A stretch of DNA of 64,000 nucleotides from a virus, in IMG/VR virus record IMGVR_UViG_3300021142_000004. One strand, written 5' to 3'. Positions within the stretch are counted from its first letter, which is position 1, and every line of letters begins with the position of its first letter. The notes beneath the pieces were generated by a model. The model saw only the letters and a program-made list of their open reading frames with translations, was not told where the DNA came from and did not search any database. The position numbers were made by a program, and so were the translations under genes. Shown piece after piece: positions 3,669 to 56,735 of the stretch.

Positions 3669-3977
3669 TTATTTTCTATTTAATTTAAAAGGTTTTCTAC
3701 CATATAATAATTCTTTCACATTTATTATATTATATGTCTGTCGATTTTCACGACTTAAAAATTCTTCGATATGATCATATGTTCTATGATAAATCCAATA
3801 ACAAGTATTTTCTTTATTAAATTGCCAATTATTATAATCTAAATAAGAACCCCCACCAACCCATTTATGTCCAAGGTTATGTGCAATGGACAATAATTCA
3901 TTTGCAATTTCTTCTGTTTCACAATGAAAGACATTCATTCTATCATCAAATAATTCTTCCCAATCTATATTGTTCAT
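3669..3977 (-). CDS. paralog family A protein with C-terminal RKPFKLNRK tag
   Basis: WEELF..FHCETEE..IAH.LG.KW; similar to 6831 and 9142. Confidence 0.8.
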   Translation of the reverse strand: MNNIDWEELFDDRMNVFHCETEEIANELLSIAHNLGHKWVGGGSYLDYNNWQFNKENTCYWIYHRTYDHIEEFLSRENRQTYNIINVKELLYGRKPFKLNRK

Positions 3978-15484: not shown

Positions 15485-15539
15485 TTTATTTTAATGATGC
15501 AAATATATGGTATTATTTTTTACTGAACAAATTTACTTT
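15485..15539. repeat. 55-bp promoter-containing direct repeat (copy 1)
   Basis: Matches 17697-17751 with one mismatch. Confidence 0.9.
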
Positions 15540-17691
15540 CTTTTTTAAATTCAACAATTTTTTCTTTAATGTTGTAATAGTTATCTTTATTTTTTATATC
15601 AATATCGTACTTTTTAACCATATTCCTGATTTGATTTTCAGTAAGTTGTGAATTAACAGATAAATAGTCAATCATCTCCATTAAAAGATCCTTATATTTA
15701 TCCATGACTTCATCAACTTCTTTTTCTGCTGTTTCAATTAATTTTTTTGATATTTTTTCAGCATCTAACAATAAATTTTCACTCCTAAATGAAACAATTT
15801 CAGAATCCGTATGTCTTATAACAAATGGAGAATTACCATGACCATAAGCTTTAATCATCATATTAGAGGTTTCAGTTACTGAAGATAAATCAGAATAAGA
15901 ACCAGACGATAACATTTCTTCACTTTTTAGTACGTATTTTTCCGCTGCCCTACCACCTAAAGCAATTAAGATGTTTAAATATTGTATCTCTTTAGTTTTA
16001 ATATCAGGTAATTCAATTCGACAAAATCCTTCCGCATTTGATGCAGTTTTAGATACTACTAACTTAGGTATTAACTTAGCCTTAATAATTGAAACAAGTG
16101 CATGTCCAGATTCATGAATTGCAGTATATGATTGATTTTCAGATGAATCTGATTTTCTTAAATTTTCAATTTTTAATGTTACTGGATATTCAAATTTCAC
16201 ATCATCAGTTTTTGTCTTAATAATAATTTCATGTGAACTATCAATATAATTAAATGACCATATAATATTATCCGTATCAATACCCTTTAAAATTACATCA
16301 CTAATAATCTTAGTGATAAAAGAATCTATAAAAGTACTTATTGTTGATAAAACTGGTCTAACACCTTGACTGGGAAATACAGATTCTTTATAAACAATGT
16401 CTTCAAGACTTTCAGTAAAAAATAAGTTTATATCAAATTCAGATTTGAAATAATCAATTCTTTGTTTTAGTAACTTTTTAATTATTTTTCTATAAGATTC
16501 ACAAGAAAATGACGGATAAATAATGATATTATTACCCAACCTACCTATCTGCTCCATTCTAAATCTAGTGGATAAAGCATGTTTAATTTTTGATGGTGTT
16601 ATTTTTAAAGAATGTTCATGAAAAATATCAGCATCAGCGTCGGGATTTGATGAATGAGTCATGTTATATGCCTCATCAATATTACCAATAATAAAAATAA
16701 GTGATTTAGATAAATCAAATTTTAATAAAGACTTACCATCAATTAAAACACTATAAAAATGTTTTATTAAATCATCTTTAGTTTCAAACTTAGTTAAAAA
16801 CTCCAAATAACTTGAGTGAGTATGTGTTGAAAAGAAATTTGGATTATTAATTGCCATTTTCTTAAATAAACTTTCAGGGACAATAGTTAACCCTGTAATC
16901 TTATCAACATTAGTAATGCCTAAATCTTTAACATTATATGCTAGTAATTTTTTAGTATCAATAAAATTGTCAATACTAATACAATCTGGATATTCACGTT
17001 TTATAATGTCAATTGATGATTGAAAAAGACAATTTACATGAATAGTATTAATATCGGATGTTTTATAGTATTGTGAAATGTTAGCGTTGCTTTGTAAATC
17101 AGAAATAATCCTAGTTGTTTCAAGAGATTTAGTTCTTAAATTTTTATCAAAAAACATTTTTAAATCCATTTCTTCTAATTGTTTGAAATATCTAAAAAAA
17201 TTAGACTCAAGACGCTTTGGTGCAGTTAAAATACCTGAATCAATAACTTCCCACATAGAACGTAAAGATTGTCTAGCGATTTCAGCACCCTTTTCATCAA
17301 TTGTTCTACCAAATTGTATTTCATCAAAAACAATAACCATATTGTTATCATTTTTTTGACAAACTTTATCGGTTAAATCATTTTTTAATTTCCATTCACT
17401 ATCATTAGCATATTCACCAATATCAAACCTTACATACTTATTTTCTAAATCAAGTAATTTAACTAAACGTTCAACTAAGTCTGTTTTACCAGTTGCAGTC
17501 ATACCAAATAAATTAATAATTAATGGTCTCTTTAATGACTTTGGAAAAACATAATAAGATCTAATATTATCTATAATATTATCAATAACCGAATCTAAAC
17601 CTATATACTCACTTTTTAATTGTTCTTTAACAATTTCCAAATTAGCGTTTTTCTTAACAATATTTTTTCTTTCTTTTAATGTTATTTTCAT
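15520..17691 (-). CDS. soluble Clp-type AAA+ ATPase fused to M41 (FtsH-type) zinc protease
   Basis: Walker A GMTATGKT, Walker B IVFDE, GVRP sensor-2, HESGH, GGRAAE, GSYSDL; no TM segment. Confidence 0.88.
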   Translation of the reverse strand: MKITLKERKNIVKKNANLEIVKEQLKSEYIGLDSVIDNIIDNIRSYYVFPKSLKRPLIINLFGMTATGKTDLVERLVKLLDLENKYVRFDIGEYANDSEWKLKNDLTDKVCQKNDNNMVIVFDEIQFGRTIDEKGAEIARQSLRSMWEVIDSGILTAPKRLESNFFRYFKQLEEMDLKMFFDKNLRTKSLETTRIISDLQSNANISQYYKTSDINTIHVNCLFQSSIDIIKREYPDCISIDNFIDTKKLLAYNVKDLGITNVDKITGLTIVPESLFKKMAINNPNFFSTHTHSSYLEFLTKFETKDDLIKHFYSVLIDGKSLLKFDLSKSLIFIIGNIDEAYNMTHSSNPDADADIFHEHSLKITPSKIKHALSTRFRMEQIGRLGNNIIIYPSFSCESYRKIIKKLLKQRIDYFKSEFDINLFFTESLEDIVYKESVFPSQGVRPVLSTISTFIDSFITKIISDVILKGIDTDNIIWSFNYIDSSHEIIIKTKTDDVKFEYPVTLKIENLRKSDSSENQSYTAIHESGHALVSIIKAKLIPKLVVSKTASNAEGFCRIELPDIKTKEIQYLNILIALGGRAAEKYVLKSEEMLSSGSYSDLSSVTETSNMMIKAYGHGNSPFVIRHTDSEIVSFRSENLLLDAEKISKKLIETAEKEVDEVMDKYKDLLMEMIDYLSVNSQLTENQIRNMVKKYDIDIKNKDNYYNIKEKIVEFKKESKFVQ

Positions 17692-21005: not shown

Positions 21006-21320
21006 TTATTTTCTTTTTAATTTGAAAGGTTTTCTTTCATCTTTATTTATTGGGTCGGTATTTCCAATAGTAACGTTAACGTCATTTTCTATAAGAATAT
21101 CCCTAAGAAAACCCAAATTAAATGATGTTTTACCCCCTGTCGCCGGTCCTCCGATGATAGTGCCAGGATATTCACCCACATTTAGACCACTTGAAAGGGG
21201 TGGTTCATCAAAATTATCAAAAACATTACTAAAATAATAATTACCGTAAAGACTAAATCCACCATTATTATGGACATGTTTAACGTATGTGTCAATATCA
21301 ATTATGTTAACCTTTTTCAT
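21006..21320 (-). CDS. small protein with helicase-like P-loop fragment and RKPFKLKRK tag
   Basis: GL..GE..TIIGGPATGGKTSF without the rest of an ATPase. Confidence 0.65.
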   Translation of the reverse strand: MKKVNIIDIDTYVKHVHNNGGFSLYGNYYFSNVFDNFDEPPLSSGLNVGEYPGTIIGGPATGGKTSFNLGFLRDILIENDVNVTIGNTDPINKDERKPFKLKRK

Positions 21321-52568: not shown

Positions 52569-53372
52569 TTAATAATTCATCCATAACGTTTCAACCTTTG
52601 TCTTTTTATTGAAGTTACCATCAATTGTTTTAACCTCAAAGTTTAGTTTTTTAAACCCATTATCTGTTAGTCGGTCATACAAATCACATTCATAACCACT
52701 AATAATGATTTTAGATTTACTTTCAATTACTGCATCCAAGAACTCAATATGACCATTTCTATCCATATCGACTTTATATCTAGCAGATGTTCTAGTGGAT
52801 TGTTCATATGGTGGATCCAAATATAATAAATTATTTGGACCATCATATTTTTTTATTAACTTTACACCATCGGTATTTGATACAATTACTCTTGATAATC
52901 TATCATGTAATTCAGGTAATCTATCAATACATGATAAAAAATCGGATACCGCTTTACTCATACCTCTACGAATACTAGAATTCATTGAGAATCCACCAAT
53001 ACCATTATGTGAGGTTCTATTAACATAGAAGAAATAGAATGCCCTGGTGATTATATCCAAGTCATCAAATTTCAATTTCTCTTTGAAATCCTTTCTTAGA
53101 TCCTCAGAATAGATTGTTAAATCACATTTTTGTTTGAATGATTCAAACATATCTTTGTCAGATATTACTTTATATAATGAATAAACATTTTGTTCCAAAT
53201 CATTATATACTTCAATTTTGGATGGTTCTTTTTTAAGACCTATACTAAAAGAACCTCCATACGCCTCAACGTATGTGTCGTATTCACTATTTAATGGAAA
53301 ATGTTGAATTATGTTATTTGCCATGTTAAATTTACCTCCATAATATCTAATTGGTGGGTTTATACTTTTCAT
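52569..53372 (-). CDS. Dam-like (D12 class) DNA adenine methyltransferase
   Basis: YYGGK, YVE..GG, EVYND, YLDPPY. Confidence 0.93.
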   Translation of the reverse strand: MKSINPPIRYYGGKFNMANNIIQHFPLNSEYDTYVEAYGGSFSIGLKKEPSKIEVYNDLEQNVYSLYKVISDKDMFESFKQKCDLTIYSEDLRKDFKEKLKFDDLDIITRAFYFFYVNRTSHNGIGGFSMNSSIRRGMSKAVSDFLSCIDRLPELHDRLSRVIVSNTDGVKLIKKYDGPNNLLYLDPPYEQSTRTSARYKVDMDRNGHIEFLDAVIESKSKIIISGYECDLYDRLTDNGFKKLNFEVKTIDGNFNKKTKVETLWMNY

Positions 53373-53383
53373 TTTATTTAATT

Positions 53384-53947
53384 TTATATAATGTGTGAAT
53401 AAAAACAGTTGCTATCAATATCATTTGATTCCTTAATAATAGTATTAATCATGAAATTATTTGGTAGGGTATTACATGTTAAAATCATTTTAACATAATT
53501 TTGATTTAAATGATAAGGTATTGAGTTAGTGATTCGATCTATGTTATTATCATGATATGAATCAATATTATCAATAATAATGACATTAAAACTTTTACCA
53601 TGAATCGTACTTAAAAAAGTATTTTCTGTACAAAAACGTACTTTACAACCGTTAAAATACGTAATGTTATAATATATTCCTTGTAAAATATTACCATTAT
53701 TAATCATATTTAAAATTGTTTTATATTGTTCAATATTTGGTAATACAAATAAAATATTTAAATTTATATTATTCTGAATAAGATGTTTCACATAATAAGA
53801 TAAAAGATATGTGATACCAACTTGTCTTTCTTGTTGTATTACGATATTATTATATGAATCATCATTTAAAACATTAAACAATTTTAATTGATGTGGGTAA
53901 AGTTCACTAGAGAACTCATTTTTTCTATATAATTTAAAAATTCTCAT
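53384..53947 (-). CDS. degenerate terminase-ATPase-like protein with N-terminal RIFKLYRK tag
   Basis: LYPHQ, RQVGIT (Walker A Lys absent), G.S...IIIDN. Confidence 0.65.
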   Translation of the reverse strand: MRIFKLYRKNEFSSELYPHQLKLFNVLNDDSYNNIVIQQERQVGITYLLSYYVKHLIQNNINLNILFVLPNIEQYKTILNMINNGNILQGIYYNITYFNGCKVRFCTENTFLSTIHGKSFNVIIIDNIDSYHDNNIDRITNSIPYHLNQNYVKMILTCNTLPNNFMINTIIKESNDIDSNCFYSHII

Positions 53948-54339
53948 TTAAATTCCTTATATTTGCGGATTATCAGTTCTTTGAATTAAAAACTCATCTA
54001 TTTCTCGTTCAGTAAGTCCCACACCTGGTAGTGAACTTAGTGATGTTATTCTTTTACCAAAAGTCTCAACAAAATCATCACTAAGATATGCTGGTATTAC
54101 TTTTGTCTTTAATCTAAGATTTAAAGAACCAAAAGTTCCACCGTCCTCTTCTCTTTCCATAAAGAATGCAGCAAACCCCGGTAGATCATGTGGTAAAAAT
54201 TCTTCAGACAATTGTTTATGAACATCATCTAAAAGTCCTTTACCATGTTCAATACGTGTCCTGTAATACTTATTTCTATCAATGGTAGTAGATGCTAGTG
54301 TATTGTCATTATCGTCTAAAATACTTAATCTAATTTTCA

Positions 54340-54750
54340 TTACTTTTTAATTAAAAGTCTATCATAAAATAAACTGAACATAAAATTTCTTGTAATACCT
54401 AATATCAAAAGATATGATAAAAGTAATATTATTCCATAATGAAATGTTATGAATCCTGCTAGTACAATTGCAACACCATTAAAAATTTCTCTCATCATTT
54501 TCAAGAAATGCCATGCGTCTGTTAATTGTACTGGTTTAGTAACAAATATAGTAAAAATTTTCCATTTTACCAAACCGTTCTTAGGATTTCCATCAACATA
54601 TTTATTCTTCCAACTAAATAATGGATTCCAAAATAATTGATTTTTATCTCTAAAAATACTGATATTATAGTGGTGGGATAATGTGTCCATAATTGCATCA
54701 CATATACCACTTAGACAATATATGATGATTGGGATGATCGTGTAATACAT
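54340..54750 (-). CDS. conserved phage membrane protein
   Basis: A.MD...H, WNP..SW.NKY, TDAWH..K. Confidence 0.8.
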   Translation of the reverse strand: MYYTIIPIIIYCLSGICDAIMDTLSHHYNISIFRDKNQLFWNPLFSWKNKYVDGNPKNGLVKWKIFTIFVTKPVQLTDAWHFLKMMREIFNGVAIVLAGFITFHYGIILLLSYLLILGITRNFMFSLFYDRLLIKK

Positions 54751-54751
54751 A

Positions 54752-54979
54752 TTAACGTTTTTTTCTTTTTAATTTAAATGATTCTCTATATGAAATTGGT
54801 AATGTAATACATATATCAACATCAATATGTTCTATTGAACCAACATAATCAAGATAAAATAATTGTCCTGATGGCATTGGTAATGATGCAATTTGAAGAG
54901 ATAAAATATCTATTAATTCTTGTTGATGATAAATAAATAGTATATCATCTTTTCTATATAATTTAAATGGTGTCCTCAT
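54752..54979 (-). CDS. small protein with capsid-like fragment and FKLxRK tags at both ends
   Basis: PMPSGQLFYLDY core; MRTPFKLYRK and RESFKLKRK. Confidence 0.7.
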   Translation of the reverse strand: MRTPFKLYRKDDILFIYHQQELIDILSLQIASLPMPSGQLFYLDYVGSIEHIDVDICITLPISYRESFKLKRKKR

Positions 54980-55319
54980 TTGTTTTTTTTAAAATCTCTT
55001 CAACTTTAGATTCGATAACATCTTCTTGTGATTCAATATGTTTAACAAGAACATCAATATCTTTAGTTAATTTTAATATATGTTCCATCATTTTATCAGA
55101 TTTATCTGACGATTTTCTTGCGGTATACCCTAATACTGGTAATGCAATCCCCTGAAAAACAACTGAACAAAGATATTGTGCCCATGTCACAAGTGTTGTC
55201 GGAGCACCAGGATAAAATAATGGTATTATTACCAGTGCTGTGACAATATAAAATGTTGTCATCATTGATAATATCAAAGATAACTTATCTGCAATGTAAT
55301 CATTAAACTTTTTTAACAT
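54963..55319 (-). CDS. DUF1003-like membrane protein
   Basis: KFN..IA, two TM segments, Q.IALP, coiled tail. Confidence 0.55.
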   Translation of the reverse strand: MLKKFNDYIADKLSLILSMMTTFYIVTALVIIPLFYPGAPTTLVTWAQYLCSVVFQGIALPVLGYTARKSSDKSDKMMEHILKLTKDIDVLVKHIESQEDVIESKVEEILKKTNEDTI

Positions 55320-55811
55320 AATAACTAAATATTTATTAATAATAAATACTAGTTATTTTTTTCCTCTAAACACTTTGGACATGGTACATTTACTGGATGT
55401 AAAATTCCATGTTTATCACATAATTTTGTTTCTTCCATAATTTAACATTCGGGGTTATATGAAACATCGGTTGTTAATTTAAATACCATATCAAGTAAGT
55501 CAAACATTGTACTTGTCATTGTGTCTCCATTTCTATCAACCGGTTTTGCCAATTCTTCAATTGCAACCGCAGTGTCTCTACATTTCTTTTTATATGCATA
55601 ATTATACACAACTGAAACACCTTTTATTGGTAACCATGATCGTTGTTTTATATTATACATTCCACTATAATCACCTTCGAGTTCTAATTGATCTTTACGA
55701 ATACCAACTATTTCTAGTGGTTCTCTATGTTCATAGACATCTCTATGATAAACTATTTGTCCGATATGAAAATCCATAATTTAATTATTTATATGTGTAA
55801 TTCAAAAAAAA

Positions 55812-56642
55812 TCATATACCTAGTTCTAATTCACTAATTAATGGTGTTGGTTTATCAAAATTTATGAATTCAAAATCGTTAATTGTGTAATCATAAAAAT
55901 TCTTTTTTTCTTTTAAATGGAACATTGGGTAATCATTTAATGGTGTTTTATTTAATAATTCATTAACTGCATTGATATGTCTGTCATATATGTGTAAATT
56001 TTGTACTAAGTGACAAAATTTACCTAAATTATAATCACAATGACCAGCAACTATCATTTGTAACGCTAAATATTGACCCTTATTAATTGCATTTGCAACT
56101 ATATAATCTGAACTACGTTGAACAAGTGTTAAATCTAAATATAATTTATCATCAACATTTCTTACTGACCATAATGTTTCGTATGCACAAGGGTCTAATC
56201 CTTTAGTTTCGTTCAAATCAGATTGTTGGTATAATGTAATAATATGTCTTCTTGAAAATGGGTTATTAATTAAACCATCCAATAAATTATCAATTAATTT
56301 CCATTTACTAACCGTTGCACCATATCTTTGTCCTATTGTGCCGTCACCAATATCCCATTCATCCCACCATTTTATACCCATACCATGAGCGTCATCTAAT
56401 GAAGATGATTGTTTTTGATAAATCCAAAGAACTTCTTTTATTCCTGTTTTAATTGCGGTATTTCTTAAAGTAGGTATTGGAAACTCTTCATTTGATATAT
56501 CATATTCTTCAAATACACCTGTTATAAATTTGGAATGAGCTGGCGTACCATCATTATATTTAGGTCTTGGGTCAATATCCCAACAACCATTATCTAATAT
56601 TTTTTTTAAATTAGTTTTATAATTAAAATCAGCTTTGTTCAT
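55812..56642 (-). CDS. thyA: thymidylate synthase
   Basis: RP.Y.DGTPAH, E.LWI, SRR, PC, QRSSD, N..QY, HIYDRH. Confidence 0.95.
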   Translation of the reverse strand: MNKADFNYKTNLKKILDNGCWDIDPRPKYNDGTPAHSKFITGVFEEYDISNEEFPIPTLRNTAIKTGIKEVLWIYQKQSSSLDDAHGMGIKWWDEWDIGDGTIGQRYGATVSKWKLIDNLLDGLINNPFSRRHIITLYQQSDLNETKGLDPCAYETLWSVRNVDDKLYLDLTLVQRSSDYIVANAINKGQYLALQMIVAGHCDYNLGKFCHLVQNLHIYDRHINAVNELLNKTPLNDYPMFHLKEKKNFYDYTINDFEFINFDKPTPLISELELGI

Positions 56643-56735
56643 GAAAAAAATCAATTAGGTCTAAATGTGTAATTAATGAATTATCTTCTAATAATGATCT
56701 ATAAAAAGATTCTGTTTTCATTGGGATTAATTTTT

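Follow-up and report, generated by a model that had tools for sequence, protein, structure and literature searches.

Tagged mini-proteins resembling terminase and major capsid protein among the non-structural genes of a large T4-like phage

The 64,000-nucleotide (nt) window analysed here (the whole stretch of IMG/VR virus record IMGVR_UViG_3300021142_000004, in whose numbering all window coordinates are given) comes from an uncultured, AT-rich, large, T4-like phage, and has a G+C content of 23-31% with nearly all of its genes on the minus strand. Two of its minus-strand open reading frames (ORFs), of 187 amino acids (aa) at 53384-53947 and 75 aa at 54752-54979, resemble parts of the large terminase (TerL) and of the major capsid protein of T4, and are herein termed mini-terminase and mini-capsid. 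Both lie within one tightly packed string of non-structural genes that runs from thyA to dam, and both carry a short basic peptide, FKLxRK, at their termini. Their features are as follows.

53384-53947, minus strand: mini-terminase, 187 aa, an N-terminal tag followed by a predicted stand-alone TerL ATPase core (about residues 137-310 of T4 gp17) with no nuclease domain (profile, AlphaFold2, Foldseek and an 11-member alignment)
53921-53947, minus strand: mini-terminase N-terminal tag MRIFKLYRK, conserved in relatives P0001 and P0003
53810-53827, minus strand: degenerate Walker A motif RQVGIT (residues 41-46), with I45 at the position of gp17 K166 (hidden Markov model (HMM) alignment to gp17 SRQLGKTT)
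53567-53581, minus strand: degenerate Walker B motif IIIDN (residues 123-127), with N127 at the position of the catalytic gp17 E256 (HMM alignment)
54752-54979, minus strand: mini-capsid, 75 aa, a deleted copy of a 92-98-aa mini-protein apparently derived from gp23 (nine-cluster family, of which an orthologue passes Pfam Gp23)
54950-54979, minus strand: mini-capsid N-terminal tag MRTPFKLYRK, in which M1, R2, F5, L7, Y8 and R9 are invariant in all nine family members
54845-54883, minus strand: remaining gp23-like core LPMPSGQLFYLDY (residues 33-45; alignment to P0015 and profile alignment to gp23 99-131)
54755-54787, minus strand: mini-capsid C-terminal tag RESFKLKRKKR, with R, F, K, L, K and R invariant in the family

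The mini-terminase and mini-capsid genes

Taken singly, the mini-terminase sequence matched Pfam GpA_ATPase below the family cut-off (E 5.9e-4; 20.0 bits against 25.6) and phrog_675 at E 6.5e-3, while four of its 11 relatives matched Terminase_6N, the best at E 2.5e-8. The profile built from 11 family members aligned with T4 gp17 residues 137-307 at E 1.6e-18, with herpesvirus and other terminases scoring more weakly. Additionally, the AlphaFold2 model (predicted local distance difference test score (pLDDT) 80) found the ATPase domain of T4 gp17 (2o0h) as its best PDB match in Foldseek, with a template modelling (TM) score of 0.72 and E 4.5e-8; further PDB matches were to other large terminases, including the Avs3-bound 8dgc, and the top matches in BFVD, which holds predicted viral structures, were all terminases. 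Identity to gp17 is 16%. The profile and fold searches against TerL, which an earlier note on this DNA had proposed after reading terminase-ATPase landmarks in the 187-aa frame, thus agree with that reading, and on both sequence and model the protein is best described as a stand-alone RecA-like TerL ATPase core.

Relatives of the mini-terminase were found at 88%, 75% and 56% identity, together with a wider set of 180-244-aa proteins that were 27-34% identical over matched stretches and 23-30% in global alignment. All relatives were 134-244 aa in length, and the window protein ends at residue 187, in keeping with the absence of a nuclease domain noted earlier; a search among longer proteins returned no longer, fused or nuclease-bearing forms, which is weak evidence. 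Neither the mini-terminase (tblastn and blastn) nor its relative P0021 had a match among 50,697 deposited phage records, and one distant family member matched the real TerL of Rhodothermus phage RM378 and nothing else in those records. In the reverse direction, tblastn of T4 gp17, gp23 and gp24 against the window returned nothing significant. The likeness of both mini-proteins to T4 proteins is, as far as these sequence searches reach, visible to profiles only.

The HMM alignment places Q20 at gp17 Q143, R41-Q42-x-G44 at R162-Q163-x-G165, I45 at K166, D126-N127 at D255-E256 and T157-C158-N159 at T285-T287. The adenine-binding Gln (Q20), R41, Q42 and G44 are therefore retained, while the last Thr of the coupling motif (gp17 T287) has become N159, and the two replacements that had been read from the sequence alone, Ile for the Walker A Lys and DN for the Walker B DE, are found at I45 and D126-N127. 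Across the family, the Walker A Lys position holds Ile in 8 of 11 members and Lys in one, and the catalytic Glu position holds Asn in 8 of 11. The eight members that carry both the K-to-I and the E-to-N change span 24-88% identity to the window protein; R41 and G44 are invariant and Q20 is nearly so, and the Lys or the Asp-Glu pair is kept only in the most distant members. Because equivalent replacements extend down to 24-30% identity, the sequences point to an old, long-lived pseudo-ATPase family and not to a recently broken gene, and the shared changes, with R41 and G44 kept, argue for a conserved non-catalytic function. With its ATP-binding and ATP-hydrolysing residues replaced, the mini-terminase is predicted to be non-catalytic: it could not drive packaging and would have to act by binding something. 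The family thus provides a clean natural pseudo-enzyme, with three equal catalytic substitutions across deep divergence.

The distant members of this family are untagged. They are located between a 5′-3′ exonuclease and DnaB, near a deoxynucleoside monophosphate kinase and a PD-(D/E)XK nuclease, or near inosine monophosphate dehydrogenase, uracil-DNA glycosylase and primase, so that a location among genes of DNA metabolism and replication is a trait of the family. The sole relative with both an intact Walker A Lys and Asp-Glu was P0011 (197 aa), which starts with the faintly tag-like MGIYKTYKN and is followed by an HNH endonuclease gene and a 183-aa ORF within L011:1848-3671; the endonuclease may have split a terminase-like gene here.

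For the mini-capsid, the 75-aa ORF of the window alone had no Pfam or PHROG match, and the resemblance of its core to gp23, as the earlier note had it, stands by way of the family. Its orthologues in sister contigs are 92-98 aa long, and the one of 96 aa (L005:5063-5350) passes Pfam Gp23 (PF07068) at E 1.4e-7 and 31.7 bits against a cut-off of 24.4, through two stretches: residues 36-68 correspond to profile positions 13-45, and residues 15-43 to positions 167-196. The family profile aligns with residues 99-131 of the solved T4 gp23, and residues 36-72 of the orthologue match annotated major capsid genes of 47 T4-like phages. The other stretch corresponds to about residues 282-308 of the gp23 precursor, a gp23-like helix, and precedes the 99-131 stretch, the order being swapped relative to gp23. 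The family comprises at least nine clusters, all of which begin with MRxPFKLYRK, have RxxFKLKRK near the end and keep a PxGQLFYLD core, and across these nine clusters all insertions and deletions are in-frame. The proteins are 75-137 aa long, far short of a complete HK97-type fold of several hundred residues, and AlphaFold2 modelled the 96-aa form as one helix with the rest disordered (pLDDT 55), which fits a peptide that folds on a partner. The mini-capsid is accordingly best viewed, on sequence and model, as a fragment-like and mostly disordered derivative of gp23.

The window copy equals the P0015 form less 23 residues, with near-identical sequence on both flanks. This in-frame deletion lies between two Ala-Ser pairs, and its junction (S32/L33) is just upstream of LPMPSGQLFYLDY. 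The exact 75-aa form occurs on seven contigs, from at least four samples, and is therefore a real variant and not an assembly error.

The shared tag and the evolution of the two genes

An 18-nt motif, TTTAAATTAWAWAGAAAA, encodes the tag. With up to two mismatches allowed, the window has 12 copies in the FKLxRK frame, while the overall expectation is 1.4 matches. The sites are given on one line.

3672-54967, minus strand: TTTAAATTAWAWAGAAAA sites at 3689, 6851, 9162, 10607, 12394, 13833, 21026, 41561, 53938, 54778 and 54967, and a looser one near 3977

All 12 copies are on the coding strand at protein ends, ten of them C-terminal, and the two N-terminal copies are exactly those of the mini-terminase and the mini-capsid. 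In the mini-capsid a basic R-x-P-FKL-x-RK peptide is present at each end; in the mini-terminase model the tag (residues 1-12) is disordered (pLDDT <50), and no alternative in-frame start codon of this gene would include the Q-motif. Tags are retained in orthologues, where a few synonymous substitutions flank the core. All relatives, the untagged distant mini-terminase members apart, keep the two terminal FKLxRK peptides picked out earlier in the 75-aa ORF, and the N-terminal one of the 187-aa ORF. What is new here is the common terminal tag, together with the common, putative operon, of a dead terminase and a mini-capsid; the tag would represent a short, portable signal.

Tag codons in the window are uniform beyond the prediction from codon usage, with TTA in 12/12 (p 0.0015), AGA in 12/12 (p 0.0065) and AAA in 24/24 cases (p 0.004). 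This excess uniformity indicates that the copies descend from common DNA or are kept alike by homogenisation, although every one of them is read as peptide, and TTTAAATTAWAWAGAAAA appears to behave as a portable coding module spread by recombination. At most about 35 nt are common to unrelated tagged genes, as for the copies at 3689 and 21026. Two other accounts of the motif were rejected: as the translation-initiation region of the next gene, since only about half of the copies precede a start codon and 12/12 are in one reading frame, and as a -1 frameshift site, since the ORFs are in the frame of the tag well upstream already.

The nine other tagged ORFs had no significant Pfam match and weak PHROG matches (best E 3.9e-4), which were to families of unknown function except for one that was marginal (E 0.16). 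Among them, the 104-aa ORF at 21006-21320 (minus strand), proposed as a helicase P-loop fragment, had no Pfam or PHROG match at E <0.5. With these nine ORFs lacking profile support, a core-protein fragment plus tag is ruled out as a general rule. Elsewhere in the window, a 723-aa protein at 15520-17691 (minus strand) matched an ATP-dependent protease PHROG at E 5e-13; should the tag serve as a degradation signal, this protein would be a candidate for reading it.

We then compared rates of non-synonymous and synonymous substitution (dN/dS; Nei-Gojobori), using the same genome pairs for all genes. The mini-terminase gave ratios of 0.45-0.73 and the mini-capsid ratios of 0.33-1.29. By comparison, dam had values of 0.05-0.10, the two intervening genes 0.08-0.24 and 0.25-0.42, and the peptidase gene about 0.1; this comparison across relatives, which the earlier note had suggested, revealed the fast evolution that conflict genes often show. 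We also placed the observed number of substitutions at random and scored the fraction of trials in which the frame stayed intact, which was 5e-5 for the mini-terminase and 0.004-0.006 for the mini-capsid. The frames are thus far better kept than neutrality allows, so that neither gene is a neutral pseudogene, and the neutral decay across relatives that would have spoken against the earlier note's reading was not seen. Both genes are retained, whether under loose constraint or under diversifying pressure.

Gain and loss were also evident between relatives. Downstream of the 121-aa gene of contig L025, orthologous to the 127-aa ORF of the window, the initial 36 nt of the mini-terminase gene (the tag plus NEF) lead directly into the dam start codon. 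The junction lies in a shared ATGAATT (L025:2706-2800 compared with L001:9960-10640), as expected if the entire mini-terminase was removed by a microhomology deletion. At the mini-terminase position, L024 has an unrelated ORF of 86 aa.

Known relatives and possible roles

The mini-terminase shares with T4 gp17 (2o0h, 3cpe, 3ezk; Pfam Terminase_6N) its fold, a collinear Q-motif, the RQxG of the deviant Walker A, the Walker B Asp and the strand order. It differs in lacking the N-terminal region, subdomain II and the nuclease domain, in the replacement of K166, E256 and T287, and in not adjoining TerS or portal genes. T4 vs.8 is likewise a homologue of the gp17 ATPase; this early protein of 219 aa has intact Walker motifs and activates EcAvs2 (PMC13601566). 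We located vs.8 in the T4 record in the early region between vs.7 and denV; like the mini-terminase, it is a stand-alone terminase-ATPase-like protein of a T4-type phage that is encoded outside the packaging module, in its case among early and DNA-repair genes. However, vs.8 has GKS and DE where the window protein has GIT and DN, and its alignment with the mini-terminase family (hhalign E 0.003, probability 11%, 102 columns) was much weaker than that of gp17, which suggests that vs.8 is probably an independent derivative. Similarly, Ksap2 (Bas60_220), a small Stephanstirmvirinae protein of phage Bas60 with a weak terminase-ATPase-like fold, triggers KpAvs2 (PMC11564622).

Stand-alone terminase-like accessory proteins are therefore already known, and the known ones are triggers. 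Avs2 binds both vs.8 and Ksap2 (PMC13601566, PMC11564622), and the contacts of Avs2 and Avs3 include the active site of terminase and the ATP bound there (PMC13601566). The ATPase domain alone is recognised by Avs2 and by Upx. Upx grips an unfolded ATPase core, and for most of the terminases tested it tolerated a double exchange to alanine at the aspartates of Walker B and of the nuclease (PMC13601566). The loss of such sensor-read features in the mini-terminase could represent an escape from sensing itself.

For the mini-capsid, the relevant comparison is with the Gol region, which lies in the first quarter of gp23, in its most conserved part, and binds EF-Tu in Gol/Lit/EF-Tu exclusion (PMC3014915). 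The mini-capsid core, in aligning with gp23 99-131, falls in this quarter and in the most conserved stretch of gp23; it differs in being a separate gene product with a swapped second gp23-like helix and flanking basic tags, and binding to EF-Tu would be a prediction from the alignment. We take the 29-residue Gol peptide to lie at about gp23 93-122, and its overlap with the mini-capsid core is based on these assumed coordinates. The mini-capsid family would thus isolate a Gol-type peptide as a separate gene.

From the homology, the loss of catalytic residues, the selection on open frames, the fast evolution and the gain and loss between relatives, we infer a mimic role, with competition for partners and shared handling through the tag. 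Our tentative preference, which we would put somewhat short of an even chance, is that both proteins are non-catalytic mimics that compete for factors that bind newly made terminase or capsid protein. The dead TerL core would act by binding and not by packaging. The mini-capsid would present a Gol-type gp23 segment (about residues 99-131), preceded by a gp23-like helix (about residues 282-308), with a basic peptide at each end. The partner would preferentially be on the host side, either a sensor or, for the capsid peptide, EF-Tu or a chaperone, and the common tag would give both proteins common handling, be it turnover, membrane targeting or particle targeting.

Several observations weigh against competition by mimics. 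In the middle of the mini-capsid gene dN/dS is near 1, the window mini-capsid has lost half of its capsid-like core through the 23-aa deletion, and the mini-terminase has been cleanly lost in L025, all of which would be equally compatible with a weak or lapsing function. Moreover, the swapped second gp23 segment has modest scores (E 1.9e-4 to 5.5e-4), and the tag codons are more uniform than codon usage predicts, such that part of the tag conservation may be at the DNA level. Likeness was measured against T4 gp17 and gp23, and no binding partner emerged from the computational analysis.

The earlier note had gone further, to mimics that take up sensors of the host and a tag that may send the complex to degradation or sequestration. 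Spelled out, this model has the mini-terminase engage terminase sensors (Avs1-3, Upx) and the mini-capsid engage capsid sensors (CapRel, Lit, Avs7-type) with no activation of either, and we consider it rather unlikely. The mimic nature that it presupposes is confirmed by the gp17 profile, Pfam Gp23 and Foldseek, fast evolution and presence/absence variation fit an arms race, Avs2 and Upx read the ATPase domain alone, with Upx mostly tolerating Asp-to-Ala changes at Walker B and in the nuclease (PMC13601566), and the ATP-dependent protease-like protein at 15520-17691 could read a degron. However, a protein without the Walker A Lys and the catalytic Glu would probably not be bound by Avs2 or Avs3, given their contacts to ATP and the active site (PMC13601566), and the analogues vs.8 and Ksap2 activate Avs2 and do not block it (PMC13601566, PMC11564622). 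Phage decoys made from terminase or capsid fragments are not listed in a November 2026 review (PMC13728456), neither protein had a defence-related profile match, and the loss of the mini-terminase in L025 and of half the mini-capsid core in the window count against it as well. Only these two of the tagged proteins have profile support as core-protein fragments. The more specific proposal of a matched pair of tagged mimics, made ahead of the late proteins and blunting host pattern-recognition immunity with FKLxRK as a common targeting or turnover signal, seems to us doubtful; if it holds, protein-sensing bacterial immunity would have its first natural decoys in this pair.

Alternatively, the two proteins could be regulators internal to the phage, the dead core joining or capping terminase or the TerS/portal assembly, and the capsid peptide interfering with or timing capsid folding and assembly, with either the phage's own machinery or that of a co-infecting relative as target. 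Docking on terminase partners could be permitted by the invariant Arg at gp17 R162 and the kept Q-motif, the capsid peptide includes the most conserved gp23 segment, and small genes for hydrophobic proteins flank the mini-capsid gene; T4 head assembly begins at the membrane. Yet the genes lie far from packaging and head genes and beside genes of DNA metabolism, as do those of distant members, they are dispensable in relatives, and their rate of evolution far exceeds what one would expect of proteins that partner highly conserved machines, so that we think this unlikely. No better chance is given to left-over fragments of genes 17 and 23 that were copied by recombination or homing-endonuclease traffic into a hyperplastic region and persist through a useful or self-spreading tag module, their resemblance being functionless. 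This would suit the mobile elements in which the region is rich in relatives (GIY-YIG in thyA, HNH genes and an intein in dam), the high dN/dS, the deletion in the window copy, the microhomology deletion in L025 and the replacement in L024, and the tag DNA that is nearly identical between unrelated genes beyond what codon usage predicts. It accounts poorly for a mini-terminase fold and substituted motifs that persist down to 24-30% identity, in unrelated genomic settings and in proteins that lack the tag, for open frames far too well kept for neutrality, and for nine mini-capsid clusters with in-frame insertions and deletions only and a conserved PxGQLFYLD core. Finally, the dead ATPase core might bind a small molecule, for instance as a sponge for a nucleotide signal, through its adenine-binding Q-motif and remodelled P-loop, with the capsid peptide unrelated. 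The conservation of Q20, R41 and G44 alongside the K/E/T to I/N/N changes across the family suggests a remodelled and not a decayed pocket; nevertheless, the Foldseek lists hold terminases and helicases only, with no known sponge family, and we regard this as highly improbable.

Avs1-3, Upx, CapRel, Lit and Avs7 recognise terminase or capsid because phages cannot easily change either. Look-alikes of both that are selectively kept yet fast-evolving would be candidates for a counter-strategy, none of which was demonstrated in the publications found; the alternative would be a so far unrecognised level at which head assembly and packaging are controlled.

Gene neighbourhood and genome context

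The recognisable genes of the window are non-structural (Pfam/PHROG) and include thymidylate synthase, a Dam-type methylase, a PcfJ-like protein, RNA ligase, helicases, AAA ATPases, an M23 peptidase and the ATP-dependent protease-like protein. The immediate surroundings of both mini-genes comprise thyA, the Dam methylase, PcfJ-like and M23 peptidase genes with no structural module, which agrees with their having been placed outside one from the outset. The adjacent features are these.

52569-53372, minus strand: Dam-type N6-adenine DNA methyltransferase (Pfam MethyltransfD12, E 2.2e-20), 11 nt downstream of the mini-terminase gene
53957-54750, minus strand: two conserved genes between mini-terminase and mini-capsid, for a 136-aa hydrophobic protein and a 127-aa protein (synteny in L001, L005, L006, L024 and L025; dN/dS 0.08-0.42 overall)
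54963-55319, minus strand: 118-aa protein with hydrophobic segments, upstream of the mini-capsid in the same gene string and absent in the L005 lineage

The 118-aa ORF had no family match in Pfam/PHROG-type scans. Its fusion to the mini-capsid by a frameshift at an A8 run was ruled out, since the L005 lineage has the mini-capsid without the 118-aa ORF. In relatives, a 59-61-aa ORF with a basic, LKKRKKR-like end stands directly 3′ of the mini-capsid (L005:5350-5529, L006:1499-1678, L024:3080-3265); it had no family match and is missing from the window.

At the DNA level, blastn of the region found no likeness among the 50,697 phage records, and PADLOC and NCBIfam scans of the two mini-proteins gave no match, including none to a defence-related profile. 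For the neighbouring proteins, PADLOC returned just two weak matches (AbiEii, E 0.002; HEPN_IX, E 0.0074) and NCBIfam none. The source contig of the window is a metagenome assembly of 163.5 kb (ENA ERZ27271897 k141_585283; L015). An IMG/VR relative of 52.7 kb has both mini-genes, and no real TerL or capsid gene was found in it; its completeness rating of 18% implies several hundred kb for the whole genome.

The box TANNTTTGCA, which we take to match the -7 promoter element of Bacteroidota, occurs in 24 copies against four expected, with 21/24 on the coding strand, and the sequences thereby suggest that the host is probably a member of the Bacteroidota. Boxes of the TATATTTGCA type span 9086-50421 (minus strand), mostly just 5′ of genes. 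Between 50421 and 56945 no coding-strand box was present, and the genes from thyA to PcfJ may therefore form a single long transcription unit.

The thyA gene of the window (55812-56654) is uninterrupted, while in sister phages it is split by genes for a GIY-YIG (I-TevI-like) endonuclease or DUF7487 (L005:2533-4831, L001:3917-7483), and the dam gene of one relative contains an intein bearing a LAGLIDADG domain. Lastly, a 29-codon remnant (CDKHGILHP...CPKCLEEKNN) of a 64-aa zinc-ribbon-like ORF is located at 55342-55430 (minus strand), the intact version of which is at L005:4831-5025 and L001:8270-8464.

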